A stretch of DNA of 64,000 nucleotides from Candidatus Micrarchaeota archaeon (GCA_964435235.1 CAYSXZ010000047.1:4594-68593), one strand, 5' to 3'; shown: positions 28,655 through 57,636, numbered from the stretch's first letter. Notes: generated by a model not told the origin, from the letters alone. Numbers and translations are program-made.

Positions 28655-28674
28655 TTCAAATCACCTCTTAATGT

Positions 28675-29733: not shown

Positions 29734-29743
29734 TCAAGACCAC

Positions 29744-30604
29744 CTATAATAGATATCTAGGCCTAGAACTTTCTATCATCCCAAGGAAAAGGAATTGAAT
29801 TATTGCTATAAGCAAGAATATTGGGATGAGGATTGAAGAACCGAATTGCCCGCCGCTTATAAACGATAAGACCGCAGCAGCAAAGACTATTCCTATAGAC
29901 GGCACTATTATGCCGAAAAGCATGTAGAACATAACTGCTGGGGTAAGCTTTTGGCTGTACTCTTTCAATTGTATTATCTGCTCTTTTGAAATCTGATCCA
30001 GAACAGCTTCCAATGAGTCGCCAACATCAGCACCGCTTGCTACCGAGTTTGCAATCTGCATCGTCATCTGAACAAAATATTTTGATGGATTATTCTGCGC
30101 GACCTCTCGGATAGCTTGCGTGGTTGGAACTCCAGCTATTATTTTATCTACTATTTTCTTAAACTCCTTGCTTACTTCTCCGTAGCCACTAGAGACTCCA
30201 ACAAAAGTTTCAAAGAGCGGCATGCCAGATTTCAGCGCGATTACAATATGTCTCCCGGCAAAAATTATCTCGTAATCGAGCTCTTTCTTTCTCTTTACCA
30301 GCGCAGCATCTGGATAAAGCATAAAGTAATTGAACGCCATCAGAATGATAACTAGTGCGAGTGGAAGCAACCACACCAGAGAGATCTGATATATTGTCAG
30401 AAAAACAAAGGATAACAAAAGAAGAAGTAATGACGCTATAATCGTTGAACCTATCACCTTTTCTAAGAATGCGGTATGCGTGCTTGGGATATCCGCCAAT
30501 TCGAGCTTTTTTTTCAAACCTGGAAACCGTGGAGCGAGAAACTCCGCGATTGGATAGAAAATTCCGCGTTTTTCTTTTCCTGCTTCCTTTGGATTTGGCG
30601 TCAT
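29744..30604 (-). CDS. type II secretion system F-domain membrane protein (TadB/FlaJ-like)
   Basis: 286 aa; GspF-like domain (TTQAIREVAQNN...DSLEAVLDQISKEQ) flanked by TM helices. Confidence 0.6.
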   Translation of the reverse strand: MTPNPKEAGKEKRGIFYPIAEFLAPRFPGLKKKLELADIPSTHTAFLEKVIGSTIIASLLLLLLSFVFLTIYQISLVWLLPLALVIILMAFNYFMLYPDAALVKRKKELDYEIIFAGRHIVIALKSGMPLFETFVGVSSGYGEVSKEFKKIVDKIIAGVPTTQAIREVAQNNPSKYFVQMTMQIANSVASGADVGDSLEAVLDQISKEQIIQLKEYSQKLTPAVMFYMLFGIIVPSIGIVFAAAVLSFISGGQFGSSILIPIFLLIAIIQFLFLGMIESSRPRYLL

Positions 30605-30607
30605 GGG

Positions 30608-32215: not shown

Positions 32216-32217
32216 GT

Positions 32218-33879
32218 CTAAAACCTCTTAAATTCCCACGGCTTCTTAGCGTTAACAGCTTCAAGAACCGTATCTGGATCTAGGTAGTAATTCGAAACTA
32301 TTTCGCCAACTTGATCGACGTCATCATAACCATTCTTAACCATCCAGTTTAGAACCTCTATTTTCTCTTCGATATCTTCTTCTATCTCCCTCTCTTCCAT
32401 CCCAGCATAAAGAGAAAGGAGCTCTCCCAATCTTCCTAACCTTCCTGTTCCCTTTATTTTATCTGTTTTCACATCCCATTTATAGAGAACGTTTGCTTTT
32501 TCTTTAGCAATCTCTGAAAATTCTAGGACACGCCTTATATTAAATCTCCTGTGCCTGAAAGTGACAACTATTCCAGCAAGCGCGTCAAGCATGGCAGGAG
32601 GAATATTTATCGGAGGGTTGGTGAGTCTTGAAATTGTCTGCTCCGAATTATCAGCGTGTAGTGTTGCGTATACACTATGGCCTGTGTGCATAGCCTCAAA
32701 CATTACCTCCGCCTCCCTCTGCCTTCTTATTTCTCCTACAAGTATCCTATCTGGTCTCATTCTCAAGGCATTTACAAGAAGATCGAGCATAGTAACCTCT
32801 CCCTTGCCTTCAGGATTCGCTTCCCTGACAACCAGAGGCACCCAATGGAGGAAGCTTGGCAGGGTGAGTTCTCTCGTGTCCTCTATGCTTACTATGCGTT
32901 GATTGGACGGAATAAGACCAGCCATTGCGTTAAGAAACGAAGTTTTACCAGAGCCGGTACCACCAGTTACAAGTAAAGATAGTTCGTTTTGAACGCACAA
33001 CCATATAAGCGCTGCAACTTCAGAGGAAACTGTTCTTGAACGAATAAAGTTCGTTATCGTCCACGGATTCTTTGAGAATTTTCTTATCGTTATTGTATTA
33101 CCAAAGCTCGATATTGGGGCAAGTGTAGAATTGACACGATCGCCGGAAGGAAGGTGAGCATCAAGCATAGGATTGAGGATGTTTATCTGCCTTCCAATCT
33201 TTCTTGCAATCATAGACGAGTAATCATAAATCGTCTCTTCATCCTTTATTCTAACATTGGTTTTACACCATCCAAATTTCTTGTGATACACCCAAAGCGG
33301 CTCTCTCGAGTTGTTAACAACAACTTCTTCTAACTGCTCGTCGGCAAGGAGGGATTCCATTTCTCCAAGTCCCAATGTATTTTGAAGAAGGTAAACCGCA
33401 AGTATCTCTCTCTTATCTTCAGGCAAGGAAGGGAAATTGCGTTCAAGAATCTTATGCGCCGCCGCAAGGAATTTTGATTTTACTTCTTCAAATTTTTTAG
33501 GATCAAGAATCTCGCTTATATCGAGTTTTACCTCTGATACTAGCTCTCCCTTTAGTTTTGTTTGTAAAATGAGTTTTGTTCCCTCAGCAATGCCAGGTAT
33601 GGTAATTTCGTATCTTGGCACAAAATCTTTTTTTCTTACTATCTTAACTTCAACCGGGAGCCCTTCGTTCTTAAACGAATACGAAGCAAGGAGCGCAAGC
33701 TGAGAGCGCATAATTTGTTGTCTTTCTTCGTATTGAGGTTTTTCCTCTTCCCCCGGCATCTTTTCTTCTTCAGTTTCTACATCTTCAGTTTCCTCTGATA
33801 GTTCTTTTTCCTCACTTACTGCTTCTTTCCTGAGTTTCTCCCTAATCTTCTCCTTTATATCTTTCTCCTCTTTGCCCAT
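32218..33879 (-). CDS. type IV pilus/archaellum-type secretion ATPase (FlaI/TadA/VirB11 family)
   Basis: 553 aa; Walker A LLVTGGTGSGKTS, Asp box IVSIEDTRELTLP, His box, Walker B DRILVGEIR; KE-rich N-terminal extension. Confidence 0.85.
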   Translation of the reverse strand: MGKEEKDIKEKIREKLRKEAVSEEKELSEETEDVETEEEKMPGEEEKPQYEERQQIMRSQLALLASYSFKNEGLPVEVKIVRKKDFVPRYEITIPGIAEGTKLILQTKLKGELVSEVKLDISEILDPKKFEEVKSKFLAAAHKILERNFPSLPEDKREILAVYLLQNTLGLGEMESLLADEQLEEVVVNNSREPLWVYHKKFGWCKTNVRIKDEETIYDYSSMIARKIGRQINILNPMLDAHLPSGDRVNSTLAPISSFGNTITIRKFSKNPWTITNFIRSRTVSSEVAALIWLCVQNELSLLVTGGTGSGKTSFLNAMAGLIPSNQRIVSIEDTRELTLPSFLHWVPLVVREANPEGKGEVTMLDLLVNALRMRPDRILVGEIRRQREAEVMFEAMHTGHSVYATLHADNSEQTISRLTNPPINIPPAMLDALAGIVVTFRHRRFNIRRVLEFSEIAKEKANVLYKWDVKTDKIKGTGRLGRLGELLSLYAGMEEREIEEDIEEKIEVLNWMVKNGYDDVDQVGEIVSNYYLDPDTVLEAVNAKKPWEFKRF

Positions 33880-33979
33880 TAGATCACCATGATCTCGTAA
33901 CAGATATTCAATACATTAAAATGCGAAGTTTTTAAATATAAGTTCAGCCCCAACGAAAATTAAAAATATGAACATATGG

Positions 33980-35680
33980 CTACTGCTCTTCCCACAATTT
34001 CTTTATAAGTTTTTTAAGTTCTTCGCGCTTTTTTCTAAACTCTAATTCTTCTACTTCTGTAAGTCTAAGCTGCTCCTTTACTACTGCTTCCTTTTCTGCC
34101 GCCTCTGCTGCCCTTTCTGTTCTCAATTCAAGAAGGCTGGCCTGGCGAGAAAGGAGCATTATTCTCTTATTAAGATTGTCTGCACTCTCGGCTAGGGTTG
34201 CGAGCGAATCCCTTATTTCCTCAAGGGCCTTTTTCTTTTCGTTTATACTTTCTGCAAATGCAACCATGCTGCTTATCTCTCCTTCCTTCACAGTCTGTTT
34301 GAATTTCTTTGCTTCCTCTCTAAGTTGCTGCTGCTGAATGCTTGCGCTTTCCTTTATTTTTTCAAGTTCTTTCTCAAGGCGGACCACTTCATTGTTATAT
34401 TTCTCTATAGAGGGAACAACCCTTTCTTTTACTTGCTGAAATGTTAAATAAGTTGATTTATCAGCCTCAAGGGCTTTCATGAGTTGTTCGGATTCCGCCC
34501 TTAACTCCGAGAGCTTCTTCTCGACCTCTTCAGCAATCTCCATTGTTCGCTTCGCGTTCAGTTGCTTTCCGCCCATGAGCTCTGTTAGCTTTCTTAGGGC
34601 CGTCGTCTTTTCTTCAATAATCGCTTCCTTTTTAGAAAGTTCTTTTAATTCCTCCAAGAGCTTTTTTTGAGAAGGGAATTTTGTAACTATGGTTTTTGCT
34701 ATCTCAAGCGAATCTGAGAATCTCTCTATAGTCTCTAGATTTTCCTTTAGTTTATCATCAATATCTTTACTCTTTTTGAAAAGAGAGTCTGCCTGTTTTG
34801 AGAGCTCACTAAGCTCTTTTTTTAGATTTGCTGCATTCTTTTCATAGTCTTTGAGTTCTTTACCAACCATGTTCACTATTTCTGTACTCTCCTGAATATT
34901 TCTCAGGTCCTCTGCCAATGCAGTGTTTCTCCTTTTCACTTCCTTGAAATCTTCCATTATTCCGTCGAGTTTCTTTTTTAACTCTACAGCAGTTGGGAGA
35001 GAAACGCCCCTTGAAACCTCTTCCATTTCAGTTGCCATCTTCTTCTTTAATTCTGTCATCTCGGATAGAAGGGATGGTATTTCCTTTTCTAGCTGTTTCA
35101 CTCTTTCAAACAGTTTCTCTGTTTTGGATTCTTTTATCGCTTCTTCCGCAGTGCGAACGTCTTCCTTTAATGCCTTTATACTATCCCTAAGCAGTTTTAT
35201 ATTCCGAAGCATATCCTCTATTTTTTCTGCATTTTCCTCGAACTTTTTTTCAGAAATCGCGCCGGTTGCTACGCTAGGCGAAATCTTCCTCTCCATCTCT
35301 TCCAGTTTTTTATAAACATCCTCGTAGAACTTTTTGAATGAGTCGCTTAATGTTGCTATTTCTTCTATCTGCGGCGTCACCTTTCCTTTTACAGCAGCTA
35401 TCTCTTTTTCAAGCTCGGCCTTTTCCTTATAAAAAGATTCTCTTTCTATTGCAATCTCCTCCTCGCTTGGCGTCACCCAAACAAGATAAACCTTAGCGAG
35501 CCTATACTCAACCCGTATTATCCCTTCTTCCTCTAGCACACTTGCCCATTCTTCTATAGTACTGCTATCTATCTTAAGTTCACTTGAGCATTCCTTAAGC
35601 TCCACCCTTCCCCTTTCCTTCACGAGCTTTACAAGAGCATCCACACCAGTAGTAACAAGAAGCTCGTCGAATTCAGTCAT
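33980..35680 (-). CDS. hypothetical protein: N-terminal winged-helix-like domain plus long coiled coil
   Basis: 566 aa; N-terminal about 70 aa globular (KECSSELKIDSSTIEEWASVLEEEGIIRVEYR) then about 480 aa of predicted coiled coil; leading gene of the pilus-like operon. Confidence 0.4.
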   Translation of the reverse strand: MTEFDELLVTTGVDALVKLVKERGRVELKECSSELKIDSSTIEEWASVLEEEGIIRVEYRLAKVYLVWVTPSEEEIAIERESFYKEKAELEKEIAAVKGKVTPQIEEIATLSDSFKKFYEDVYKKLEEMERKISPSVATGAISEKKFEENAEKIEDMLRNIKLLRDSIKALKEDVRTAEEAIKESKTEKLFERVKQLEKEIPSLLSEMTELKKKMATEMEEVSRGVSLPTAVELKKKLDGIMEDFKEVKRRNTALAEDLRNIQESTEIVNMVGKELKDYEKNAANLKKELSELSKQADSLFKKSKDIDDKLKENLETIERFSDSLEIAKTIVTKFPSQKKLLEELKELSKKEAIIEEKTTALRKLTELMGGKQLNAKRTMEIAEEVEKKLSELRAESEQLMKALEADKSTYLTFQQVKERVVPSIEKYNNEVVRLEKELEKIKESASIQQQQLREEAKKFKQTVKEGEISSMVAFAESINEKKKALEEIRDSLATLAESADNLNKRIMLLSRQASLLELRTERAAEAAEKEAVVKEQLRLTEVEELEFRKKREELKKLIKKLWEEQ

Positions 35681-35753: not shown

Positions 35754-36737
35754 TCATCGTGGTAGTTGTTTTACCAACTTACAGAACTTGCATTCCCCTT
35801 CGCTGCTCGGTTCCCCACATATACTACAATAATTGATTATCATCTTGCTCTTATCATCGCCCCTCTCGCGGAACATTCTCTGCAACGAAAGGAAGCTGTT
35901 TAGGATTTTGAACATCGAACCCGGATACTTATTTTCGAGCTGTTCGACTTCCGCTCGTACAAAACTCCTGAACGCATAAGAGGAATACGGACAGCATTTC
36001 TTATCGAGAAGATTTAGTCCTTTTAGTCTTCCGTAGAGCACAACCTCGCGTTCCGGAGAGCGCAAAAACGGTTTTATACGCGGTACAAATCTTCCATCGT
36101 GCACGAGGTGTTCATTGTAGCGTAAAAGTCGCATAGGTTCGTTTCTAATTATGTTCATGAGAATTGTTTGTGCAGTATCATTGAGAGTGTGCGCTATCGC
36201 TAGTTTATCTGCACCAAGCTCTCGCGCATGTTTGTTTAGGAGGTATCTTCGCACTACTCCACATTCGCTGCACGGATTCCGCGTTCCTGTTTTTGCTACA
36301 AGTTCGTCCAACGTGTAGCCGATGTCATTCTTAAGGGAGAATATACTGTGCGGTACGTCCAAGGATTTACACGTCCCCCGCGCGATTTCGATTATTTTTC
36401 TATTATAGTCGCATTCTATTCCGAGATCGATTGTGATCGCGATGAGCTTGAATGGAAATCTTTTTTTCAATTTATTGAGCATGTAAAGAAGGGTCGTGCT
36501 GTCTTTTCCTCCAGAGAGGCCGAGAGCGATGGTCTCACCTTTTTTAATCATTTCAAACTCGCGAATAGTTTCAAAGAAACGTTTTTCGAAATGCCTGAAG
36601 AAATGCCTTTGACACATATATTTGTTTGCGTACGGAAGGAAGATTACAGCGTCCCTGCTGCAGATGGAGCATTTCTTATCCTTAGGCACGTCAATGACGC
36701 TCTCGCGTTCGCAGCTTAAATTCTTGCTTACGCTCAT
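35754..36737 (-). CDS. ttuA: tRNA 2-thiolation PP-loop ATPase, TtuA/NcsA (Ncs6/Ctu1) family
   Basis: N-terminal zinc finger CSICS...CQRH, PP-loop SGGKDS, central CSECG, C-terminal CSICGE...CKFCK. Confidence 0.75.
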   Translation of the reverse strand: MSVSKNLSCERESVIDVPKDKKCSICSRDAVIFLPYANKYMCQRHFFRHFEKRFFETIREFEMIKKGETIALGLSGGKDSTTLLYMLNKLKKRFPFKLIAITIDLGIECDYNRKIIEIARGTCKSLDVPHSIFSLKNDIGYTLDELVAKTGTRNPCSECGVVRRYLLNKHARELGADKLAIAHTLNDTAQTILMNIIRNEPMRLLRYNEHLVHDGRFVPRIKPFLRSPEREVVLYGRLKGLNLLDKKCCPYSSYAFRSFVRAEVEQLENKYPGSMFKILNSFLSLQRMFRERGDDKSKMIINYCSICGEPSSEGECKFCKLVKQLPR

Positions 36738-37328: not shown

Positions 37329-38633
37329 TCATTTATTTTCATTTTTAGAACTCTTATACGAATACTCTTTTTCTAAGTACTCTTTTCTCCATTTCCAAAA
37401 TCTTTTCACAAGTTCTTTATCGCCAAGTCCTTCGAACACTTTTTTTAAACCGTAGCAGACATTTCCTCCATAGTCAAAATCGAATAGTATACTAGATGAG
37501 TCGTCGTAGTTCTTTTCCGCAATTTTCTGCCCTAAGTTGCGAATGTCTTCATCCTTATGTTTGCATGCTTCTTCCAATAGTGCCTTCGAAGCCTCTAAAG
37601 GAATCTTCTCAGTTAAAGGCCCATACTTCTTACAAAGCTGCTTTATCCTGGGCTCATACCACTTATAAATCTTATATGCCCTCTTATATCCATCCAACAG
37701 AATCTCTTTAACATCAGTTCCAATTTTTGGGTCGTTTCCCATCTTAACCAGATTGTCGATGGAGTCTAGGTAGCAACTGCTTTTACTCAGTTTATCTATT
37801 TCAGCCTTTACTTTTACACTAAATTTTATATCTTCATACTGCGGAGTTGACTGTCTTGTTGTGTTTGACTTAATCTCGATGGAAGGGAGCGAAATCATCG
37901 TCTCTGCCTTCTCATAATTTTTGCTCGAATCATCGCTCTGTCGTTTTAAACCAACAAGTTCTTTTTGGAAGAGTGAACATATATAGTCTGCTACATCTTC
38001 ATCGCCACGTTGTTCCGCCATGGTAAAGATTTCTTTGAAGATGTCAGCGATGATTCCACGAATCCGTCCTGCTCTTTCATATTCCTCAGAAAATTTGCTG
38101 TTGGAAGAGCGCTCCTCTCTTGCCTTGTCAAATTTATCTTTAAGAAGCGGTATGAGGATATAATAATCTATCGAATTTAATAATTCTTTTTTTGTAGATT
38201 CAACTTTATTCGCATCGTCTATATCGCCCAAAGATGAAAGCAACTGCTCGGCCCTCTTTCTCTGAGCATCTTTCCGCGTTTTTCCGATTTCTTTTAAAGA
38301 TTCCGAGAGGATGGTTGTGCCATATTTTTTTAGCATGCGGTTTATTGCTCTTACTGCCTCCTTATCGAGCTCTTCGTATGCAAGGGCGTCCACAAGCGGC
38401 TTTATTGCTTTTTTGCCAATCTTTTCTATTTTCAAGTAGTCTTTTCTAACCAAGGATGAAAAAACAATAACTTCTAAATTCTGCTTTTTCAGTTTTTTGT
38501 CTTTGATCTCTTCTGCAAGTTTGCGATAAAGACTTTCGTTTCCTTCATGAAGCGCCTCTTTGAACTTCTGCCAAAGGTGGTTGTTTTGCTCCTTTTGTTT
38601 ATTCCCTGGTCTCAAAAACCTCAACAAATGCAT
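37329..38633 (-). CDS. hypothetical Lys-rich alpha-helical protein
   Basis: 434 aa; no recognisable catalytic motif; predicted mostly helical. Confidence 0.4.
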   Translation of the reverse strand: MHLLRFLRPGNKQKEQNNHLWQKFKEALHEGNESLYRKLAEEIKDKKLKKQNLEVIVFSSLVRKDYLKIEKIGKKAIKPLVDALAYEELDKEAVRAINRMLKKYGTTILSESLKEIGKTRKDAQRKRAEQLLSSLGDIDDANKVESTKKELLNSIDYYILIPLLKDKFDKAREERSSNSKFSEEYERAGRIRGIIADIFKEIFTMAEQRGDEDVADYICSLFQKELVGLKRQSDDSSKNYEKAETMISLPSIEIKSNTTRQSTPQYEDIKFSVKVKAEIDKLSKSSCYLDSIDNLVKMGNDPKIGTDVKEILLDGYKRAYKIYKWYEPRIKQLCKKYGPLTEKIPLEASKALLEEACKHKDEDIRNLGQKIAEKNYDDSSSILFDFDYGGNVCYGLKKVFEGLGDKELVKRFWKWRKEYLEKEYSYKSSKNENK

Positions 38634-38667: not shown

Positions 38668-39210
38668 TTACTTACTGCGCCATTCGCATCTTTGATTTAC
38701 GCATTTGCAGGAAAGACCGTAAGATTGGGCATTATAGCATTCTCGGTACTCGCATGTTGTGGCGATCGGCTCCTCGTATTTAGATTGGCATACTTGCCCT
38801 GAGCATCCTCCAGCAATGCAGTCAGAATCAGAGGAGCATGGACCGTTAGTTGACCAACCGCAGAAATGATTTGGTTGCTGCCCTGCACACTGATCCCATA
38901 CTATAAGAGAATTATCGCATGAGCTGTACCAACCCTCTGAACGTGTTCCGATTGCACCGCATTCTGCCTTGCATTTTGCACAGTTGTCATATCTTATCAA
39001 CTTTCCATCCCTGTACCATCCCTCGCTTCTCGTTCCTATTGCACCACAGTAGGGAATACCAGGACTTCCTTCACCAGTGCTCTCATTTACACTATTGTTT
39101 ATCGTATCATTTGTAGTAGTGTCATTCACACCCCCAGTGGATGGCGGTTGCTGAATACATCCAAAAGCAAGAATCGCACCTAAAAGCAATATTCCAAACA
39201 GTATTCTCAT
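38668..39210 (-). CDS. secreted Cys-rich lipoprotein with internal repeat and N-glycosylation-sequon linker
   Basis: 180 aa; signal peptide with lipobox-like AFGC; NDT/NNS/NES sequon-rich linker; tandem CGAIGTRSEGWY repeat; 17 Cys. Confidence 0.5.
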   Translation of the reverse strand: MRILFGILLLGAILAFGCIQQPPSTGGVNDTTTNDTINNSVNESTGEGSPGIPYCGAIGTRSEGWYRDGKLIRYDNCAKCKAECGAIGTRSEGWYSSCDNSLIVWDQCAGQQPNHFCGWSTNGPCSSDSDCIAGGCSGQVCQSKYEEPIATTCEYRECYNAQSYGLSCKCVNQRCEWRSK

Positions 39211-39779
39211 ATTATCGACCTTCCTTTTCGTCCTTTCATTAGCAAGAGCAATGATACTCCTACTATCAAAAGGCCTAATAAAACTAAAATGAGCGAGAAG
39301 TCGTTTGTTGTCGTGATGGAAATTGCTGTCCCGGTTTCCTGATGTGGAACTGCTTCTGCTGTCTTAACGAGAGCATCTCCAGCAAACACCATTTCTCCCT
39401 CGGCTTGTGTGGTCATGCCCTTTTCAGTCAAACCATATATTCCGTAAAGCGAAATAAGGATGCCAAAGATGCATGTCGCAATAAGTATGACAACTCGCTT
39501 TGGCCCCTCCTCGCCAACAAGCTTTCTTCCGTCTTTCGTGAGCGTGTAATACTTCCATATGTTCGTTGAAGGAACCTGCTCTATGAGCCTTCCCTTTATT
39601 AGAATATCAAGGTGCTCCTTTGCTGTCGTCTTTGAAATCTTAAGCGCCTCTGCAATTTCAGAAAGTGTGTAATTTCTTTTCTTAAGCAGTTTCAATATCT
39701 CGGTTCTAGTCTCTGAAGTGAGCGACCTAAACGTTTTTTGATCCATCACAATCGCATCTTCGATTCCTCGTTCGTCCAT
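39207..39779 (-). CDS. membrane-anchored winged-helix (ArsR/TrmB-like) transcriptional regulator
   Basis: 190 aa; N-terminal wHTH (LSEIAEALKISKTTAKEHLDILIKGRLIE) followed by two TM helices; overlaps the start of the downstream Cys-rich protein by 4 nt. Confidence 0.6.
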   Translation of the reverse strand: MDERGIEDAIVMDQKTFRSLTSETRTEILKLLKKRNYTLSEIAEALKISKTTAKEHLDILIKGRLIEQVPSTNIWKYYTLTKDGRKLVGEEGPKRVVILIATCIFGILISLYGIYGLTEKGMTTQAEGEMVFAGDALVKTAEAVPHQETGTAISITTTNDFSLILVLLGLLIVGVSLLLLMKGRKGRSII

Positions 39780-46024: not shown

Positions 46025-47113
46025 TTAGATAAGTTTAACAAGGCCTCTGCCTATCTCAGGAATGTTTCCTCCGAAAAGATTTGTAGTGTTCAGAATAAAG
46101 GTGAGCATAAGAATGGCTGCCGCAAGAGGAGCGAGACATATCGAGGCAAAAACCCTTTTAAAGAGCTTCCCTATGTATCCAGTCCTAAAATCGAGAAGAT
46201 TTACAATTTGATCATAACTACTTTTGATGATTAGAGGTATCTCACCAATTATCTTCGAGAAAGATGCGGGATTATTCCTAAATTGTTCTTCATTAAACGG
46301 CAAGGCAGGCAGGCTGCACAGGTAGTACGGAGAACCTTTTTCAATAGCTGCTTGGCATCCTCCAACCGGTGTTAGCACCCCCTCCTGAGCTTCAGGTAGG
46401 GAGATGTTCGCTATGAGAACGTAGCCGAATGGAAATATAAAATAAAACCCTATAGAGGCAGCCATGAGGTATGCACCGGCGCCTCTTGTTGGAGGAAAGG
46501 CCCTAAGCGCAACCCCTATTGCAAAGAAAAATCCAGCATAGTGTTTTACGAAGTTAAGAGAGTGGAGAAGAACATAGTAGATATAAAGATAGAAAGAGAG
46601 CATCTGTGTAGTGTTTTTTATTCTTTCAGCAATCGCCTTTACACCGTAGCCAGTTGCTTGCTCTGACATGAACACTTCCATATAAACAGAGGCTGCAGAT
46701 TCTATTGGGATGCTTGCAATATAAAGAGTATGGAGAGTATCTTGAACGCATCTTGCAGGAGTCTCCATATACAGTTTTGTGTAATCTATCAAGGTAGTGG
46801 CTGGTATGTTGCCTACCATAGGCGTAAAGGAACAGGTGGTGCAGTCGATTCCAAAGCTGTTGAAGTAAAGGCATCTAACAACTGCAACAATTGCATTCTC
46901 TCCAACATAAAGAAGACCGATTACCATCAGAACTATAAAAACAGTGGATGCTGCATAAACAAATTCTACCTTTGCAGTCTGTTCAAGATTTCTTAAATTC
47001 AACGCCCTTGACAATATGATAAGCATAGCAGCGCCCATGACAGATATTCCTGCGGCTGCAAACGAGATCGTCTGCCAGTCAAGCCATCCACTTATATTAG
47101 TTGCAAAGGCCAT
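46025..47113 (-). CDS. paralogous polytopic membrane protein, family member 6 of 6
   Basis: 362 aa; shares GVALRAFPPTRGAG...FIFPF and C-terminal NIPEIGRGLVKLI with five upstream paralogs. Confidence 0.5.
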   Translation of the reverse strand: MAFATNISGWLDWQTISFAAAGISVMGAAMLIILSRALNLRNLEQTAKVEFVYAASTVFIVLMVIGLLYVGENAIVAVVRCLYFNSFGIDCTTCSFTPMVGNIPATTLIDYTKLYMETPARCVQDTLHTLYIASIPIESAASVYMEVFMSEQATGYGVKAIAERIKNTTQMLSFYLYIYYVLLHSLNFVKHYAGFFFAIGVALRAFPPTRGAGAYLMAASIGFYFIFPFGYVLIANISLPEAQEGVLTPVGGCQAAIEKGSPYYLCSLPALPFNEEQFRNNPASFSKIIGEIPLIIKSSYDQIVNLLDFRTGYIGKLFKRVFASICLAPLAAAILMLTFILNTTNLFGGNIPEIGRGLVKLI

Positions 47114-47128
47114 GGTATCATCCTTATA

Positions 47129-48211
47129 CTATATCATCCTTGTTAATGAACTTATGTCTACCTCCTCGCCGAAACTTTTGCTAAGAGATAATGCTGCTTG
47201 CGTGAATATTAGAATATTAAACGCTGGCATTAAATAACCAATCATGAAAGCCTTCCCGACAACAGAGATTGGAAAAACCATAATTACTAAGAAGATGCTT
47301 CCAAAAACATCCTGCAGCAGATTGCCTATACTGCCTAGCGCTCCGGTTACGAACCCGAAAAGACCACTACTGTAAGTGAATGGATTAAGAAAGTGCGATA
47401 TCTTAGTCCAAAAATCACCACCAGGTCCGTAATACTGTACAATAAAACTTCTGAAAGTTATCATCGGCCCATTTTCATTGTAAAAAATAAAATAAGTAAG
47501 GGTAGTAAGAAAAGGAAAAATCAAGAGAAAACTAAGACATACTGCGATCAGTGTGCCACCGAGCCTTCTTGTTGGAAGAAAACAACGCAGGAAAACGCCT
47601 ATCGGAAGGTAATAACCAAGAAAGACCTCTGTGGCAAAGAGAAATGTGTAGTATTGGGCGTAATTTATAACGTATGCTATGGTAAGCGCAGTAGTGCAGT
47701 TATAAAGAAGTTGCTTAAGAGGGGTTGCAAAACCAGCAAGAGGAGCGGAAACAAGACCTATCCCTAGCGGTCTTGCATATTGAGTTATTGAAGAAGCCAT
47801 ATCTACGTACACATTAATAACGTAATTAAGGTTCAGCCAAACCTCCATATCCCTACCTACCTCAAGAAAATAATTTTCGGTTATTTCATAGATAGTGGCA
47901 TCAGGGCTCACGCCAGATGGTAGGACCGATGGCGGAAGCAGTTTTCCTATACCTAGGTTTGAAAGAGAACCTGCAATACCAATAACATAAAATACTAGAA
48001 TGGCAGTGACAACTACCTCGTAAAGTTCTAGTTTTACAAACGATATCAATTCATTGTTGCGGAAAAGCGTGCCCCAGGCATATATGAATGCAAGAATGAC
48101 TACTGAGGTTAGAAGAGCTGCGCCGCAGAGGGCAACCCACGACCAGAAGCCGCCCCCAGAAGCAGCAAACGCAGGTATACTTGTTATAGGTATCGGTGGC
48201 ATATTGACCAC
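47129..48211 (-). CDS. paralogous polytopic membrane protein, family member 5 of 6
   Basis: 360 aa; KLELYEV after TM1, GVFLRCFLPTRRLGG...LIFPF, C-terminus GEEVDISSLTRMI. Confidence 0.5.
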   Translation of the reverse strand: MVNMPPIPITSIPAFAASGGGFWSWVALCGAALLTSVVILAFIYAWGTLFRNNELISFVKLELYEVVVTAILVFYVIGIAGSLSNLGIGKLLPPSVLPSGVSPDATIYEITENYFLEVGRDMEVWLNLNYVINVYVDMASSITQYARPLGIGLVSAPLAGFATPLKQLLYNCTTALTIAYVINYAQYYTFLFATEVFLGYYLPIGVFLRCFLPTRRLGGTLIAVCLSFLLIFPFLTTLTYFIFYNENGPMITFRSFIVQYYGPGGDFWTKISHFLNPFTYSSGLFGFVTGALGSIGNLLQDVFGSIFLVIMVFPISVVGKAFMIGYLMPAFNILIFTQAALSLSKSFGEEVDISSLTRMI

Positions 48212-48212
48212 A

Positions 48213-49436
48213 TCATAATATTCTAAGGAATCCTAGGAAATTGATATTTACATTAAATACTCTTGCCCACTCCCTAGCTAGCGTTAGCGTTATAAATATA
48301 TTAAGGAAGGGCAGTAGCATGCTCATTATAACAATATAATAAACACTAGACCTTATAAGCTCAAATGCAACGGATACTGCGCTGCCCACAAAGAATGGAA
48401 ATATCACTCCTCCCATCAGTAATGCCAGCACTATAAGAGCTCCGGAGACCGAAAATATCCCGCTCCTTGCTACAAAGGACTGGAGTACAGAATCTCCATC
48501 TATGAGAGTGAGCTTCATTAGCTTATGTGCTTCATAATCGAATATAAACATGAACGGATATATTGTACCAAGCGCAAAGGTTAGCATCAGCAGAGCTTCT
48601 CCAGCATTTCTCGTATACGGAACCGCTCTTAGCACCATACCTAGGGGTATAAAGAGGCCCCACATCCAGCGCTTTATAAAGCATAGCACGATTATATGGA
48701 TCATCCATTCGCTTATTGCAAGCGAGAGGTACTGGGTTGCCGTTCCAACTATATCCAGTAATGGTTTGAGGACAGGTCCGAGATTGAAGTTGTACATCGC
48801 TCGCCAGCTTACTCCTACCCACATCGTTGATGAATAAATTGTGTGGATTACCATGTTATACATAACGAGAATACTATAATTGTCTATCATTTCCGCAACC
48901 ATTGTTCTTGAGAATGCCATAGCTGCATCTAGCATATAAGGATTATGGAGGTAGAGTGGGTCTGATGTTCCGGTCGCGGATATGCTATAAAATAGATTTC
49001 CTGCGGTTATGGTTCCGATGATAAAGACAACTCTAAGGATTGTAATTATGGTTTGATATAATTCGTCCTTTGCTAGCGCGATGAGATTTGGAGACTGAAA
49101 AAATTGCCCGCCCATATAAAGTACGGCTAACGAGAAGAGGATTATAATCGTTACCATTATCGCTGGGGCAAACCATGTTTCTATTATTATGGTCGGGTCG
49201 AAGACAAATTCTGGCCCGCAATACCCTGGATCGAAAGCTGAATAGACGTTTTGGAAGAAGCCTGGCACAGTTCCTCCTGCTGTTTCAAACGAATTTATGA
49301 AAGCGCTTCCTTCTCTTTCTAATCTTTGTACCGCCCTGTCAGTAAAATGTTTGAACTCCCCGGATTCTTCTTGAGCATAAGCAATTTCTAGAAGGAAAAG
49401 AAATATCGCAAGCGATACAAAGAAAATTTTTCTCAT
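48213..49436 (-). CDS. paralogous polytopic membrane protein, family member 4 of 6
   Basis: 407 aa; signal-peptide-like N-terminus, SPNLIALAKDELYQ, GMVLRAVPYTRNAG...IYPF. Confidence 0.5.
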   Translation of the reverse strand: MRKIFFVSLAIFLFLLEIAYAQEESGEFKHFTDRAVQRLEREGSAFINSFETAGGTVPGFFQNVYSAFDPGYCGPEFVFDPTIIIETWFAPAIMVTIIILFSLAVLYMGGQFFQSPNLIALAKDELYQTIITILRVVFIIGTITAGNLFYSISATGTSDPLYLHNPYMLDAAMAFSRTMVAEMIDNYSILVMYNMVIHTIYSSTMWVGVSWRAMYNFNLGPVLKPLLDIVGTATQYLSLAISEWMIHIIVLCFIKRWMWGLFIPLGMVLRAVPYTRNAGEALLMLTFALGTIYPFMFIFDYEAHKLMKLTLIDGDSVLQSFVARSGIFSVSGALIVLALLMGGVIFPFFVGSAVSVAFELIRSSVYYIVIMSMLLPFLNIFITLTLAREWARVFNVNINFLGFLRIL

Positions 49437-49437
49437 G

Positions 49438-50811
49438 TTATATCAGCCTCGTCAATCCAGCTATCTCTATATCCCCTCCGAATGTTATCGAAAGCGACCT
49501 TATCGCAGCTATCGTTCCCAGGAGTCCGAAAAGAGAGAAAAAAAGAGAGAAAAATGTGAGCCTTGCAAGAACATCAATAAAACCACCAGGCCCCCAGTAT
49601 GAAGGACCACCAGGAATACTCTGCGCGAGCCTATCTATCAGGTTCATTCTAAAAACACTTTCACGCCAACTCTGAGATGCTTCCTGCATCCTGTTAAACG
49701 CTCTTTCTTTCTCATTATCGCTCATGCTACCAAAATTTTTACTCAAATCTATGTTTGGGGCCAATCCTCCACCCGCGCTGCCGCATCTCCCTTCTTCAAC
49801 GCATTGTTTAAATTCCTCATCGCTCATATCTTCATAAGCTCTTAGCCTTTCCTCTAGCTCTTGATTGCTAACATCCCCGCCAACCATATTTATGGTGCCG
49901 TCAACATAGAGGGTATTAGCGAGAGGAGGGTTGTGGCTTATTGGCGTCCCAAGATATCTGTTGCCTGGATTTGCAGGATCATTCTCCCACATAGGTCTTG
50001 CCTTTTCCTTCAAATCTATCAGCACCAAACCACCGAATGCGTAGAATGCGGGATAGATGAAATAAAGCGCAATTGCAATGCCGAGAAGAAGCCCGCCTAG
50101 TTTTCTAGTGAATACAAATGTCCTAAGAATACAGCCTAGTATGAGAAGGGCTGGGAAGAGGGCGACTGCGACGAACCTAAGCATGAGTTCCTGGAATTTT
50201 GTAAGGAGATTTATCTTCATCGCCCAATCGAATGCCAGATCCTTTATTAAATTACCCATCGTATAGAAGCCCCTAAACGGGTTCCATGTAAAGAAGCCCG
50301 CTTGTTCGAAAACAAATTCGATGTTTATAGAAAACTCAGCCGCGATGGATGTCCAGAGATAACTGCGATAAACTGCATAAGCAAAATCTCTTCCCTCTGC
50401 GAAAATTTCCCTTAGATAGTAAGTTGCAAGTCTGATGTGACAGGACTCAAGGTCTCCGTAAATTCCGCTCCTTGCCATACGAGGACCGCATATGTCTATT
50501 AACGTTTCATCCGGAAAGCCAGCTTCCGGGTCTCGTATCCATGTTTGAGTAGACTGCCCACCTCCCAAATTAGAAACTCCGAGTGCGCCCTGCACAATCG
50601 CATCTACAATTCCTACTGAAGATATACATAAGGAGAATACTAACGCTGAGTAGAATATCTCAAGAAGCTCCATCTTCGCCCATGTCTTCATCTTTTCATT
50701 CATAAGAAGGGAGCCTAGAGCATACACAAGGGCTACCAATGCAGTCATGATAGAGAATGCAGCTGCCGCAATCCAGCCCCAAAAAATAAACAATCCAACT
50801 ATGTCAGGCAT
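49438..50811 (-). CDS. paralogous polytopic membrane protein, family member 3 of 6
   Basis: 457 aa; KMELLEIFY, GCILRTFVFTRKLGG...IYPAF, large soluble insert, C-terminus GGDIEIAGLTRLI. Confidence 0.5.
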   Translation of the reverse strand: MPDIVGLFIFWGWIAAAAFSIMTALVALVYALGSLLMNEKMKTWAKMELLEIFYSALVFSLCISSVGIVDAIVQGALGVSNLGGGQSTQTWIRDPEAGFPDETLIDICGPRMARSGIYGDLESCHIRLATYYLREIFAEGRDFAYAVYRSYLWTSIAAEFSINIEFVFEQAGFFTWNPFRGFYTMGNLIKDLAFDWAMKINLLTKFQELMLRFVAVALFPALLILGCILRTFVFTRKLGGLLLGIAIALYFIYPAFYAFGGLVLIDLKEKARPMWENDPANPGNRYLGTPISHNPPLANTLYVDGTINMVGGDVSNQELEERLRAYEDMSDEEFKQCVEEGRCGSAGGGLAPNIDLSKNFGSMSDNEKERAFNRMQEASQSWRESVFRMNLIDRLAQSIPGGPSYWGPGGFIDVLARLTFFSLFFSLFGLLGTIAAIRSLSITFGGDIEIAGLTRLI

Positions 50812-50814
50812 ACT

Positions 50815-52362
50815 CTATCCCTTCATAACAATAAACTTTGTCATCGCATTTATAGATGCGATCGTTATAATAGTAGCTACTCCTGGAGAGAAGATACCAA
50901 GTAAGGAAACGGCTGCAAGAGACTTAAGTACTGGGAGAAAGATGGACATGCTTAGCCCGTGAATAAATCCCTCAGAGAATATCGTTTGAAATCGTTGTAC
51001 AATAGCAGAAGCGTAGGGAAGATCCATTGCGCTTATAAGGACTGGAGGTATGCTAGCGTACACGTAAATTAGGCCGCACAGACTGCTTATTGGAAAACTT
51101 AATGACGTGTATTCGGAAAGCCCAACATTTCCAAGAGCAATTGTGTTTATGAAATACGCGGTCGGAAAGATTATTTGAAAACCGAAGGCAAGTGATATTA
51201 AAAATGCACCTGCCTCGCGCGTTGGTGGGAAAAAGCGCAGAACCAAACCTGCTGGAAGAAGAAAACGTACCATTACAACATCTATAAAATTAAGTAAAAA
51301 TATCTGCACAGAAAGACTTGCGTATATCATGACAAAACCTAGTGCGAGAATATTTGTCATGGAAACGAAGGTGTCTATTCCAGGAAATACCTTAAAGGTT
51401 GGTGATAACACCTGCTCCCCTATTCTTTTTTGAAATGTGTTTAGCACTGAGGTGCATGCTTGAATGGTGTAAACATCCATCAGCGCCTTATAGACGTTGT
51501 CTGCATAACCGCGAAGTTGTTCTGCTGCCGCAAGAGGAGGGGACGAGCTACCAACTACCGCAGTTGAAATAGTACTACTAACAGCAAAGAAGCTTATAAC
51601 AAATATCAAAAGAAGAAAGGAATTAATGAGATTCGTAAGCTCGATATTCAGATAGGCCTCCCATTCCGGTACCCTGAATATCTTTGCTACGAGATAAGTT
51701 ATAAGAATTATAGAAGATATCATCAGAACAACAAAGACTACTGCGTCTCTGTATGGAGTAAGAACGACTTCCTTGCCTCCTATAGAGAAGCTAACTATCA
51801 TCATTGAAAGAATGTTGGTTGCGATGTAGAAAAGAATGATATAAATAAGCGCTGCTATAAGGGCAGACCCAAGAAGCACCTGCGACCATACAGTTGCCCT
51901 TGCCCTTGTTTCTGCACCGAAAAGTTGACCTATGGCAAACGCACCAGCTGCGATTACCACCATAATTACTATAAGGTAGAGAAGGGCGCGCTGTGCGAGA
52001 CTGCTCAATCTCTGCAATAACACAGAGAGGTCTAATGTTGGCATCCCTCCTCCTGAAAAGATTGGAACAAAAAATGAGAATAAAATTATAACAAGTGCTG
52101 AAACCCCTATAGCAGCAAGCAGCCCACCAGACCATGCTTGTATCCTTGCCCTTGTTTCTGCTCCAAAGAATTGCCCGAATACATAGCCACCTGCGGCTAT
52201 CACTGCCATCACTATCATTAACATTATCAAGATTGCTTGAACTGTATAGAAAACATTAATCGTCTCCTCCCTGGGCTCAAGAGGGGTTGTGGAAAACTGC
52301 GCAAGTGCGAGCGGTAGAAGAACAAGAAAGGCAAATACCGCAATAACTGCCATTTTATTCAT
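50815..52362 (-). CDS. paralogous polytopic membrane protein, family member 2 of 6 (N-terminal internal duplication)
   Basis: 515 aa; signal-peptide-like N-terminus; duplicated segment AAGGYVFGQFFGAETRARIQAW / AAGAFAIGQLFGAETRARATVW; GLVLRFFPPTREAG...IIFPTAYF. Confidence 0.5.
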   Translation of the reverse strand: MNKMAVIAVFAFLVLLPLALAQFSTTPLEPREETINVFYTVQAILIMLMIVMAVIAAGGYVFGQFFGAETRARIQAWSGGLLAAIGVSALVIILFSFFVPIFSGGGMPTLDLSVLLQRLSSLAQRALLYLIVIMVVIAAGAFAIGQLFGAETRARATVWSQVLLGSALIAALIYIILFYIATNILSMMIVSFSIGGKEVVLTPYRDAVVFVVLMISSIILITYLVAKIFRVPEWEAYLNIELTNLINSFLLLIFVISFFAVSSTISTAVVGSSSPPLAAAEQLRGYADNVYKALMDVYTIQACTSVLNTFQKRIGEQVLSPTFKVFPGIDTFVSMTNILALGFVMIYASLSVQIFLLNFIDVVMVRFLLPAGLVLRFFPPTREAGAFLISLAFGFQIIFPTAYFINTIALGNVGLSEYTSLSFPISSLCGLIYVYASIPPVLISAMDLPYASAIVQRFQTIFSEGFIHGLSMSIFLPVLKSLAAVSLLGIFSPGVATIITIASINAMTKFIVMKG

Positions 52363-52371
52363 ATTCTACAC

Positions 52372-53631
52372 CTAAACTAACTTTGTTATTCCTGCAAGTT
52401 CCATTTCTCCACCTATTACCCATGCGATATTCCTATACATTGTTATTGTAATTATTATCTCTATGACTGATGTAATTATTACTAAAACTATAAACTGCCC
52501 AACGTGTGATACCTCTCTAACTATAAAATAATAAAGGCCGGCCGCAACATTCGAAGGGAGAAAAGGACCGGTGAGACCGGAATAAAAATCACCCGTAAAC
52601 CCCATCATAAACTTCCAAATACCAATCGCTGTGTTAATGAAATTTTTTGCAAGATTATATGCTCCCTTCCATAACCTCTCGAAACTACACAGTATTTCAT
52701 GTCCGGCGCAGTACGTATCTCCACTGGCGACCCTCTCTGCCAGAGGCTCGGAACGGAAAAGCGCTTCCCGTTCTTCGCTTTGCTTTCTCATATCAGTAAG
52801 GGCCTTTTCTCCGGTGGCTTGGTCCACGTTAGTCTTAAAGAGCGAGAATGAGCTGAGCATCGGTGGTGGCTCTGAAGGATGATAAAGGTCGAACACGGTA
52901 TAATAAGAAAATAATACTGAAAAAGGATAGGCAAAATAAGCAGCAAAGCATAGTGCTATGATACTGGAGCCAGTTGTCCTGGAGAACGGAAATGCTCTCA
53001 GAAATATCCCTATCGGCAGAAGTATCAATGGTACCACATATTCGCAGAAGAAAAGCAGAAACTCCTTAACCCATACCGCCGCAACAAGAAGTCCTATGCT
53101 CTCTACAACGCTTGTATGAATCGTGCTCAACATCCCAAGCGATATGTAGGGCATGAAAGAGAATGAAACTATCGCTGGACCAGAGAATATAGCTCCTATT
53201 GGAAAGGAAATGGTTGAAAGAAAACCAATTAAAATCTCGTAAAGATAGAGATTCGTATAAAGACTTATGAGTTTACTCTTAAAAACAGCATTGGCCTGCA
53301 ATGCCAATTCTACATGAGTTACAGAAAGACCGCTCAATTGCGGGCCGCCAGGAATAGTAATTCCTATAAGACCTGATGTTAAGCTATTAAAAAAACCATC
53401 ACCCATTATCCATACAAATATTATGATTGCAGTAAAGATAAGAGCAGCAAATTCGTCATGAGCAACTGCAGTAAGTTGCGGGCTTTGGAAAAAATATGCT
53501 ACAAGAAAGAAAAGAGCAGTGACTACGATGGAGAAACCTAGGGCGCCGGCTATCATCCCTGTGGCTGCTTGTGGAATCGTGACTAGCAAAGGAAGTATGA
53601 AATCCATCCTAACCGCAATTGTATAAAGCAT
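52372..53631 (-). CDS. paralogous polytopic membrane protein, family member 1 of 6
   Basis: 419 aa; SPQLTAVAHDEFAAL, GIFLRAFPFSRTTG...AYPF, C-terminus GGEMELAGITKLV. Confidence 0.5.
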   Translation of the reverse strand: MLYTIAVRMDFILPLLVTIPQAATGMIAGALGFSIVVTALFFLVAYFFQSPQLTAVAHDEFAALIFTAIIIFVWIMGDGFFNSLTSGLIGITIPGGPQLSGLSVTHVELALQANAVFKSKLISLYTNLYLYEILIGFLSTISFPIGAIFSGPAIVSFSFMPYISLGMLSTIHTSVVESIGLLVAAVWVKEFLLFFCEYVVPLILLPIGIFLRAFPFSRTTGSSIIALCFAAYFAYPFSVLFSYYTVFDLYHPSEPPPMLSSFSLFKTNVDQATGEKALTDMRKQSEEREALFRSEPLAERVASGDTYCAGHEILCSFERLWKGAYNLAKNFINTAIGIWKFMMGFTGDFYSGLTGPFLPSNVAAGLYYFIVREVSHVGQFIVLVIITSVIEIIITITMYRNIAWVIGGEMELAGITKLV

Positions 53632-53676
53632 GTTAATTATTAAAACGTTGCAGATGTTTTCGAACAGAGTAAATTT

Positions 53677-53967
53677 TCAAAATTTCTGTTCCATAACGTC
53701 AAATCTCTTAGATGTATTATTAGAAAACTTATCAAGTTTATCTCCTAATTTCGTAAAGCCTTCATCCATCTTATTACCAAGCTCTTCTCTTGTCATTTTC
53801 ATCTCAGTAGCTAATTTTCTCATATAAATGGCTCCCGCTTCTATGCTTTCTCTATTTTCAATCTCTAATTTTATTTTCTCTACGAACCTTCTTATGATTG
53901 CCATATCTTCATGCTCGGCAAAAATCTCTACGGTTTTCTTGTCATCAAGGTTCTTGACCATTCCCAT
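53677..53967 (-). CDS. small coiled-coil protein heading the six-gene membrane-protein operon
   Basis: 96 aa, charged, predicted helical; ends 45 nt upstream of family member 1 on the same strand. Confidence 0.35.
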   Translation of the reverse strand: MGMVKNLDDKKTVEIFAEHEDMAIIRRFVEKIKLEIENRESIEAGAIYMRKLATEMKMTREELGNKMDEGFTKLGDKLDKFSNNTSKRFDVMEQKF

Positions 53968-56132: not shown

Positions 56133-56204
56133 GGGCTAGTAGATCAACGGTAGATCGCCTTCTTGGCGTGGAGGAGGCTGGGGGTTCAAATCCCTCCTAG
56201 TCCA
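56133..56204 (+). tRNA. tRNA-Ala (anticodon GGC)
   Basis: Cloverleaf folded by eye: acceptor GGGCTAG/CTAGTCC with G3:U70 Ala identity pair, D-arm GATC/AACGGTA/GATC, anticodon stem CCTTC/GGAGG with loop TTGGCGT (U33, GGC, G37), T-arm GGGGG/TTCAAAT/CCCTC, discriminator A; CCA not encoded. Confidence 0.85.
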
Positions 56205-56265
56205 CAAAAAGATCCGAGTTGGGAAAATTTATATACTTATTGAGTATAATACTTATTAGGTATAT

Positions 56266-57636
56266 ATGAAATTCGTCGATAGGGAAAAGGAATTAGAGCT
56301 TCTAGCCAAGTTAAAAAGGCCGAGAATTGCAGTAGTCGGAAGGCGACGGATAGGGAAGACGACACTTGTTGAGCACGGTTGTCAAAACGTGCTAACTCTC
56401 TTTATCCCTGCTGAAAAGACCGAAGCCGAAATAATTGCTGATTGGGTAGCGGAATATCCTGAACTTCTACTTCCACGACTTGCATCTTTCAGGGAGTTTT
56501 TCGAATACCTGCTCTCAAAGGAAAGAGAGCGTACAATATTCATAGACGAGTTGCAAAATGTTCTGAAAGTTAACAGCTCTTTCATATACGACCTTCAGCG
56601 ACTTATGGATAAGCATAAGAATTGCAGTATAGTCGTTTCTGGCTCTTACATCTCATTGATGAAGGGTCTCATCGAAAAGTACAAAAGTCCCCTGTACGGC
56701 AGATTTGATTTTGTAATAAAGCTCAATGAATTGAATTTCAGAGCCGTTGTTGCACTGTGCGGTCAGCTTGGCTATTCATTTGAGGACATGATCCGTTTCT
56801 ACCTAGTCTTTGGCGGCATCCCAAAATATTACGAAACTCTTGAAAATATGGGCAGTCCATCATTTGAAGACGCTGTAAAAGCACTCTTCTTACTTTATCC
56901 ACGTCCTCTGAATGAAGAAATACGCACAATGCTCAAGGAAGAATTTGGAAAGGAACATAAGATGTTTTTTACAATCCTGACAGCTGTCGCTTCAGGAAAA
57001 AACATCCTTAAGGAAATCGCATATTACAGCGGCAAAAGGCCCACAGAGCTTACAAAATATCTAGCTTTATTAAAAGATGATTTTGACATCTTGCGAAGAG
57101 AAATTCCAGTTACAGAAAAAAAAATAAAAACAGGGCGTTACGTTATAGTCGCTAACATTTTTTCCTTCTGGTTTTATTTTGTGTGGCGGCAATATTATAT
57201 CCTGGAGAGAAATCTCGATAATGTTGCAGCTGACTTTTTTGACAAGGAAATAAATTTATATCTCGGCAGGAGATTTGAAAATTTATGCAGAGAAGCGTTA
57301 ACTGAATTAAATAGTGTAAGTCAGCTTCCATTTGAAATATCAGAGATAGGAAGGCAGTGGGGGAAGGATCACAACGGCAATCCCTATGAAATTGATCTGG
57401 TTGCTCTGAACAAAAAGACAGGTGATATACTATTTGCGGAGTGCAAATGGAGCGAGAACGTGAATGCTGAGACCGTTCTCACAGAACTCAAGAGAAAAGC
57501 TGAATTAGTTGAGTGGAACAAAGGAAAAAGAAAGGAGCACTATATAGTGTTTGCAAAAAGCTTTAAAAAACGCGTTGAAGAAGAGAATGTGTTGCTGTTT
57601 GATTTGAAAGATCTCGAAACACTATTCAAAAGGTAG
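56266..57636 (+). CDS. archaeal ATPase (Arch_ATPase, PF01637-like) with C-terminal DUF234 domain
   Basis: 456 aa; Walker A GRRRIGKTT, Walker B IFIDELQ; C-terminal EIDLVALNKKTGDILFAECKWSE DUF234-like motif. Confidence 0.75.
   Translation: MKFVDREKELELLAKLKRPRIAVVGRRRIGKTTLVEHGCQNVLTLFIPAEKTEAEIIADWVAEYPELLLPRLASFREFFEYLLSKERERTIFIDELQNVLKVNSSFIYDLQRLMDKHKNCSIVVSGSYISLMKGLIEKYKSPLYGRFDFVIKLNELNFRAVVALCGQLGYSFEDMIRFYLVFGGIPKYYETLENMGSPSFEDAVKALFLLYPRPLNEEIRTMLKEEFGKEHKMFFTILTAVASGKNILKEIAYYSGKRPTELTKYLALLKDDFDILRREIPVTEKKIKTGRYVIVANIFSFWFYFVWRQYYILERNLDNVAADFFDKEINLYLGRRFENLCREALTELNSVSQLPFEISEIGRQWGKDHNGNPYEIDLVALNKKTGDILFAECKWSENVNAETVLTELKRKAELVEWNKGKRKEHYIVFAKSFKKRVEEENVLLFDLKDLETLFKR

Follow-up and report, generated by a model that had tools for sequence, protein, structure and literature searches.

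DPANN archaea are abundant organisms with reduced genomes, and how they build their envelopes and exchange material with their hosts is largely unknown. The mycobacterial Mce systems are built from six paralogs, MceA to MceF, that are encoded in tandem in a fixed order and join in a single hetero-hexamer, which spans the envelope and has long helices. In the archaeal DNA-import systems Ced and Ted, the CedA component is reportedly VirB6-like. VirB6 itself is built of seven long helices, of which five are hydrophobic and just the first two insert into the membrane, and it assembles into a pentameric cone (PMC9259494); Rickettsia encodes five tandem VirB6 paralogs, RvhB6a-e (PMC2653234). Here we analyze an array of six tandem, divergent paralogs encoding polytopic membrane proteins in a 64,000-nucleotide stretch of DNA from a Candidatus Micrarchaeota archaeon (the window; array at positions 46025-53631). 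This self-contained six-gene unit is present in all 57 complete loci sampled from a phylum with very small genomes, carries no annotation, and is almost certainly important to Micrarchaeota cells.

Six divergent paralogs in a tight operon

Translation of the window gave six open reading frames (ORFs) for the array, all on the minus strand and designated here by a letter and the length of the product in residues. The first, B419 (52372-53631), contains Glu60, the central motif GIFLRAFPFSRTTG (52969-53010) and the C-terminal tail IGGEMELAGITKLV (52375-52416); its orthologs begin at Met9 (53607), which is the probable true start. C515 (50815-52362) contains Glu241, the motif GLVLRFFPPTREAG (51208-51249) and a deviant tail ending in TKFIVMKG, and in this protein a signal-like N-terminus and a tandem-duplicated extra transmembrane (TM) hairpin precede the family core. 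D457 (49438-50811) has Glu48, the motif GCILRTFVFTRKLG (50095-50136), the tail FGGDIEIAGLTRLI (49441-49482) and a long, acidic second outer domain with Cys. E407 (48213-49436) has a signal-like N-terminus followed by an outer segment of about 65 residues, Glu125, the motif GMVLRAVPYTRNAG (48600-48641) and the tail FNVNINFLGFLRIL. F360 (47129-48211) is close to the minimal core and contains Glu62, the motif GVFLRCFLPTRRLG (47558-47599), Pro233 and the tail FGEEVDISSLTRMI (47132-47173); judging from the database protein P0122, its true start may lie three codons further downstream. The last gene product, G362 (46025-47113), has Glu50, the motif GVALRAFPPTRGAG (46475-46516) and the tail GNIPEIGRGLVKLI (46028-46069). 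G362 is identical to the database protein P0002, and F360 likewise has an identical database counterpart; these database proteins are encoded on a 72-kb contig.

The gaps between consecutive genes (B-C, C-D, D-E, E-F and F-G) are 9, 3, 1, 1 and 15 nt, and the GC content of the array is about the same as that of the remaining window. Directly 5′ of gene 1 lies an A/T-rich, TATA-like segment, ctgcaacgttttaataattaac (53632-53660, minus strand), that differs by one base in the closest relative, L005, where it falls within a 60-nt spacer between the aspartyl-tRNA synthetase (AspRS) gene and gene 1; this segment is a putative promoter region for the operon. The original prediction, made from the window sequence, had given the coordinates and sizes of these six ORFs exactly, its spacing of 1-15 nt holds, and all of the motifs it quoted were found in the translations.

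Pairwise blastp comparisons among the six proteins gave E values from 4e-12 to 8e-3 at 20-45% identity. HHalign comparisons using a 57-sequence ortholog alignment for each paralog connected all 15 of the 15 pairs, with probabilities of 97.9-99.8% and E values of 1e-13 to 1e-28. The closest pairs were B-D, E-F and D-F, and no additional family member was found elsewhere in the 64-kb window. These comparisons place the paralogy far beyond chance and, together with the short gaps, uphold the prediction that six divergent paralogs encoding polytopic membrane proteins form a tight operon.

An internal duplication of the first TM pair had also been proposed for one member. The TM hairpin of C515 is indeed repeated in tandem (residues ~41-103 versus ~123-186, z = 17 against shuffled sequences), but the repeated hairpin showed no significant similarity to the canonical TM1-TM2 pair of the family (z ≤ 3.4). 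The signal-like N-termini predicted for two members, C515 and E407, were seen again in many orthologs. Gene 2 length was inspected in deep-branching loci (L047, L048, L050-L052, L054-L056 and L058-L072). The paralog C ORF spans about 300-350 codons in many of them (e.g. L047, L048, L061, L066 and L068-L071) and about 430-510 codons in L050, L052 and L056. Because short C ORFs occur in many deep-branching loci, the N-terminal duplicated hairpins of C515 look like a later addition in some lineages.

Distribution and gene order

Relatives numbered 151 in one protein search and 135 in a second. Every named one is annotated as a hypothetical protein, and no Pfam domain was found in either set. The named relatives are labelled Candidatus Micrarchaeota, Micrarchaeia or Bilamarchaeum, with the sole exception of an "ainarchaeum sp." entry, P0090. 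An exhaustive hidden Markov model (HMM) search of 1.84 billion cluster representatives matched 3044 proteins at E ≤ 1e-3, 2378 at E ≤ 1e-10 and 416 at E ≤ 1e-30. From the best 150 of these 3044 matches, ten of the weaker ones were sampled; four are named, all as hypothetical or uncharacterised proteins, and the three whose names give an organism are assigned to Micrarchaeota, Micrarchaeia or an uncultured archaeon. When one genome for each GTDB species was scanned, 65 loci emerged, 57 of them labelled Micrarchaeota, Micrarchaeia, Bilamarchaeum or Bilamarchaeaceae, five "archaeon" or "uncultured archaeon", and three "ainarchaeum sp." Every sampled and labelled member is thus confined to Micrarchaeota or its closest neighbours. 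The three last loci (L011, L028 and L057) carry the array; their title, 'Candidatus ainarchaeum sp.', probably stands for Iainarchaeum of the sister phylum Iainarchaeota. These loci may come from mislabelled metagenome-assembled genomes, or the family may be slightly wider than Micrarchaeota. A scan of viral contigs found no relatives, and a mobile-element origin was therefore rejected.

With per-paralog HMMs, the order B-C-D-E-F-G on one strand was recovered in 60 of 72 loci; in the remaining 12 the array runs into a contig end or is broken up by frameshifts. All non-redundant loci that are not cut by a contig end (56/56, or 57/57 including the window) share the six genes and their order, which persists down to the most divergent locus, L072, at 25% identity. 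Distant genomes show one-to-one, collinear orthology at 42-52% identity. Because six non-redundant paralogs have been retained in a fixed order, as near-overlapping genes, by organisms with such small genomes, we infer with fairly high confidence that the six products are subunits of one hetero-oligomeric complex.

Conserved residues and predicted topology

Alignment of 342 proteins (six paralogs from each of 57 genomes) revealed only seven columns conserved at 80% or above. In F360 numbering these are E62 (96.8%), G205 (94%), R209 (98.5%), F211 (80%), R215 (98.2%), G218 (100%) and P233 (100%). Departures from the conserved Glu or Arg did not form an informative pattern between adjacent paralogs. 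The Glu resides in loop 1, which has a fixed length of 18 residues, and the sequence G-x3-R-x-F-x3-R-x2-G resides in the loop between TM3 and TM4, which has a fixed length of 11 residues and a charge of +2 to +3. The mean number of Asp and Glu residues in this second loop is 0 in five paralogs and 1.0 in the orthologs of C. Two long inter-helix regions are variable in length, net acidic, and hold the cysteines. The last 14 residues are strongly conserved, with consensus frequencies of 0.68-0.91 versus 0.50-0.57 protein-wide (examples are FGGDIEIAGLTRLI, FGGNIPEIGRGLVKLI and GEEVDISSLTRMI); paralog C deviates, ending in TKFIVxKG, in agreement with the earlier description of a tail shared by five of the six.

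Applied to these patterns, the positive-inside rule predicts a topology with the N-terminus outside, about five hydrophobic helices, two acidic outer domains, and the C-terminus inside. AlphaFold2 (AF2) models of the monomers, built with 100-110 orthologs as input, are confident and all-helical, with helices of 40-59 residues. The predicted local distance difference test (pLDDT) and predicted template modeling (pTM) scores were 80.6 and 0.71 for B419 and 85.6 and 0.81 for F360.

The acidic residue that follows TM1 and the conserved Arg positions could also be read as signs that the array encodes six independent permeases or enzymes, such as GT-C glycosyltransferases or Wzy-like polymerases, each with its own substrate, and the separate retention of each paralog since before the radiation of the phylum fits such a view as well. 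GT-C enzymes (STT3/AglB, PMT and ArnT) have 10-13 or more TM helices and an acidic catalytic motif in the first extracytoplasmic loop; Wzy, O-antigen ligases and SEDS proteins have 10-14 TM helices, a Wzy_C or FtsW/RodA domain, and periplasmic Arg motifs. The proteins described here have only about five hydrophobic helices versus the 10-13 or more of GT-C, Wzy, WaaL and SEDS proteins, their Glu is in a loop predicted to be cytoplasmic, and their Arg loop is short, basic and likewise predicted to be cytoplasmic. No Pfam match to STT3, PMT or Wzy_C and no NCBIfam or fold match to a Wzy-like polymerase was obtained, no glycosylation genes were seen in the neighbourhood of the array, and the fixed order with gaps of 1-15 nt points to co-assembly. 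We therefore consider independent enzymes very improbable, and the GT-C and Wzy-like ideas raised in the original prediction are not supported.

Searches against known families

Searches of Pfam, NCBIfam and PHROGs with the six proteins, of Pfam with 43 family members, and of PDB sequences with four family profiles all returned noise only, and no description of the six-gene cluster was found in the searchable Micrarchaeota and DPANN literature. As judged by these membership tests, the family is outside the known families and no database model covers it, in line with its initial description as uncharacterised. A relationship to GspF/PilC/TadB-C (T2SSF, PF00482) is not supported, since none of the six proteins matched the model, which recognized the two genuine T2SSF proteins in the window with E values of 2e-16 and 3e-16. 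Assignment to a well-known transporter family such as the ABC-2 permeases had been named beforehand as the outcome that would speak against a new system; profile and Foldseek searches were empty in this respect. An ABC-2 or other housekeeping permease is not supported, given the missing Pfam, NCBIfam and PDB-profile matches and TM-scores ≤ 0.17 for the Foldseek matches to ABC exporters.

DPANN cells must obtain or move lipids beyond their own synthesis, and the six proteins could jointly make up a novel transporter or flippase that handles lipids or glycans linked to polyprenyl phosphate, in which the Arg-x5-Arg loop and the Glu would bind the phosphate head group and the six subunits would line the translocation path. 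The positively and negatively charged residues conserved at what is predicted to be the cytoplasmic interface, the polytopic nature of the proteins and the lack of a dedicated ATPase in the operon are consistent with this idea, as is the finding that in the cultured Micrarchaeon the lipid pathways are incomplete and known amino acid transporters are missing (PMC8975820). However, no transporter or flippase family or fold showed similarity to the proteins, MurJ/Wzx, MprF, DedA and ABC exporters appeared as noise matches only, protruding long helices and large outer domains would be unusual in a carrier, and the operon also occurs in Micrarchaeota lineages for which a free-living lifestyle has been proposed, such as Bilamarchaeum (PMC8561730). 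On balance we regard a transporter or flippase as unlikely.

Comparison with VirB6 and a proposed envelope conduit

The overall build of the six proteins loosely resembles that of VirB6/TrwI, which has DotA as a homolog and is the inner-membrane base of the type IV secretion stalk or protochannel. For this reason we tentatively propose, with somewhat less than even confidence, that they form an obligate hetero-oligomeric, VirB6-like envelope conduit or assembly platform; its oligomer, architecture and function are all predictions. The hydropathy profile of Agrobacterium tumefaciens VirB6 consists of TM1, a short charged loop, TM2, a loop of about 75 residues, TM3, a short basic loop (DRTRDIAAKW), and more hydrophobic helices. 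Like the six-gene family, VirB6/TrwI is all-α and has 5-7 long helices, most of them hydrophobic; the protein opens with a hydrophobic hairpin and closes with a C-terminal tail. In both, a large outer loop follows helix 2 and the best-conserved block consists of TM3 and a short basic loop (PMC2653234). The VirB6-type layout with the N-terminus out, about five hydrophobic helices and the C-terminus in is matched by the family at the level of prediction, from hydropathy, charge and length statistics, and signal-like N-termini. VirB6 forms an oligomeric ring or cone, a likeness that extends to the proposed assembly of the six proteins only.

Several results weigh against this proposal. The TrbL/VirB6 model PF04610, which all genuine VirB6 homologs carry, did not match any of the six window proteins or 43 family members at E ≤ 1. 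HHalign comparison of a pan-family profile and six per-paralog profiles with a 116-sequence VirB6 alignment, a narrow one of A. tumefaciens-type sequences at ≥ 40% identity, gave probabilities of 0.1-1.5%. No Trp is conserved at 80% or above across the 342 proteins, unlike the invariant Trp of VirB6. A Foldseek search of the PDB gave no match (best E value 0.22, TM-score ≤ 0.24), and VirB6 was not listed. Known VirB6 assemblies are homo-pentamers, whereas six distinct paralogs are encoded here. Clustering of flanking ORFs in 56 loci found no conserved co-directional partner within 5 kb, VirB4 and VirB2-like proteins included. Unlike VirB6, the array is chromosomal, archaeal and phylum-wide, sits in a housekeeping context, and does not have VirB3, VirB4, VirB2 or VirB8 partners nearby. 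Thus, of the earlier suggestion of VirB6/TrbL-like channel components, the similarity in hydropathy layout stands and membership in the family does not.

The best precedent for six tandem paralogs making up one complex is provided by Mce, although the Mce proteins differ in having an MCE domain and a single TM helix per subunit, in their YrbE permeases and ATPase dependence, and in being bacterial. As far as descriptions allow a comparison, the Ced and Ted systems share with the array an archaeal, chromosomal setting and a polytopic component said to be VirB6-like, but Ced loci reportedly encode a VirB4-like ATPase (CedB), pilin-like CedA1 and CedA2, and a single CedA, and such partners are not found beside the six genes. 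The rvh locus of Rickettsiales likewise contains tandem, divergent paralogs of a polytopic channel-base protein, conserved throughout a host-dependent lineage with reduced genomes (PMC2653234). Unlike the proteins described here, the RvhB6 proteins have PF04610 domains, are encoded beside virB3 and virB4, and are 674-1154 residues long with large flanking domains.

In this model, the six genes encode one Micrarchaeota-specific family of all-α integral membrane proteins, which arose by serial duplication before the radiation of the phylum; the six cistrons have stayed together ever since, always in the order 1-2-3-4-5-6. The six products, probably in one copy each, would come together in the cytoplasmic membrane as one hetero-oligomeric ring or dome. 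As suggested by the sequences and the AF2 monomer models, each subunit would start outside with its N-terminus, and its TM1-TM2 hairpin would be closed on the cytoplasmic side by the 18-residue Glu loop. An acidic, helical outer domain of about 90-140 residues would follow TM2. The TM3-TM4 hairpin, with the invariant Pro in TM4, would be closed by the 11-residue basic loop and followed by a second outer domain that is variable, acidic and Cys-containing, and a last long hydrophobic helix would lead into the conserved 14-residue cytoplasmic tail. The Glu and Arg residues might make up a charged clasp or collar on the cytoplasmic side, whether inside one subunit or from one subunit to another, and the C-terminal tails might dock onto a soluble partner encoded outside the operon. 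Such a complex would not be an enzyme; it would export, take up or display a macromolecule or lipid across the membrane toward the surface layer (S-layer).

In a more specific and, in our view, rather improbable version, the complex would be a hetero-hexameric VirB6-like protochannel that operates without the canonical type IV apparatus, an archaeal envelope conduit fixed in the chromosome that would define a new class of machine for secretion or uptake. Through it Micrarchaeota could exchange lipids, metabolites or nucleic acids across the membrane and S-layer, and its six tails would dock onto a hexameric cytoplasmic motor encoded elsewhere. Should the VirB6-like interpretation be correct, the channel-base architecture of type IV secretion systems would be extended to a free-standing archaeal machine; should it be wrong, the family probably stands for a membrane-protein fold and a complex that are both new. 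Even with a genuine VirB6 resemblance, a chromosomal, phylum-fixed array of six paralogs with no ATPase in its operon would be a distinct kind of system. The six proteins, their seven conserved residues and their conserved tails provide a testable target.

Neighbourhood of the array

The array sits in a largely syntenic housekeeping neighbourhood, with genes for AspRS and SurE divergently oriented upstream and genes for Dph2, a Methyltransf_28 protein, a PIN_5 protein and an RNA ligase in the downstream flank. This conserved context (AspRS, SurE, Dph2 and PIN_5) and the phylum-wide occurrence suggest a core role in the envelope, which could also be that of a structural scaffold that does not transport anything and instead anchors or spaces the S-layer or shapes the membrane. 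The acidic, Cys-bearing outer domains would suit such a scaffold, and an S-layer is present in Micrarchaeota according to a preprint (bioRxiv 10.1101/2021.04.28.441871). The best-conserved features, namely the Glu loop, the Arg loop and the tails, are however predicted to be cytoplasmic and not on the outer, S-layer side, and we consider a scaffold quite unlikely.

Apparent clusters of conserved, co-directional ORFs upstream of the array proved to be antisense shadow ORFs of AspRS and SurE and were discarded. With no other co-directional partner conserved, the system consists of the six genes alone. The long plus-strand ORFs antisense to AspRS and SurE lie upstream of gene 1 in L001-L004 and many other loci and are conserved only via the sense genes.

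In the window, an ORF for a 96-residue charged, helical protein (53677-53967, minus strand) lies 45 nt upstream of B419 and has its own TATA-like element, ctttaaata. The original prediction had placed this protein, described as a coiled coil, at the head of the operon. Gene tables show that the ORF is missing in five of five distinct relatives, including one whose first-gene product is 90% identical to B419. The spacer between AspRS and gene 1 is 430 nt in the window versus 60 nt in that relative, and alignment of the spacers revealed an insertion of about 370 nt in the window that carries the ORF. The protein forms a singleton cluster seen in the source organism only. On these findings it was rejected as part of the system; the ORF is an organism-specific orphan small gene outside the six-gene unit.

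A locus resembling those for Tad or archaeal type IV pili lies about 12 kb from the array (28115-35680, minus strand). It encodes a T2SSE ATPase (32218-33879) and the T2SSF platform proteins (28675-29733 and 29744-30604), together with unannotated ORFs of 535 (30608-32215), 179 (28115-28654) and 566 residues (33980-35680), the last with a weak DUF948 match. The 179-residue ORF has no Pfam match, nor do two further minus-strand ORFs of 434 (37329-38633) and 180 residues (38668-39210); beside these ORFs are the genes for a TtuA-like PP-loop enzyme (35754-36737) and an ArsR-type HTH regulator (39207-39779). On the other side of the array, an archaeal ATPase_2/DUF234 gene (56266-57636, plus strand) is located between SurE and tRNA-Ala (56133-56205) on one side and NYN and TatD genes on the other. 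The relatives L003-L007 do not have this gene at that position, which identifies it as a second local insertion in the source genome.

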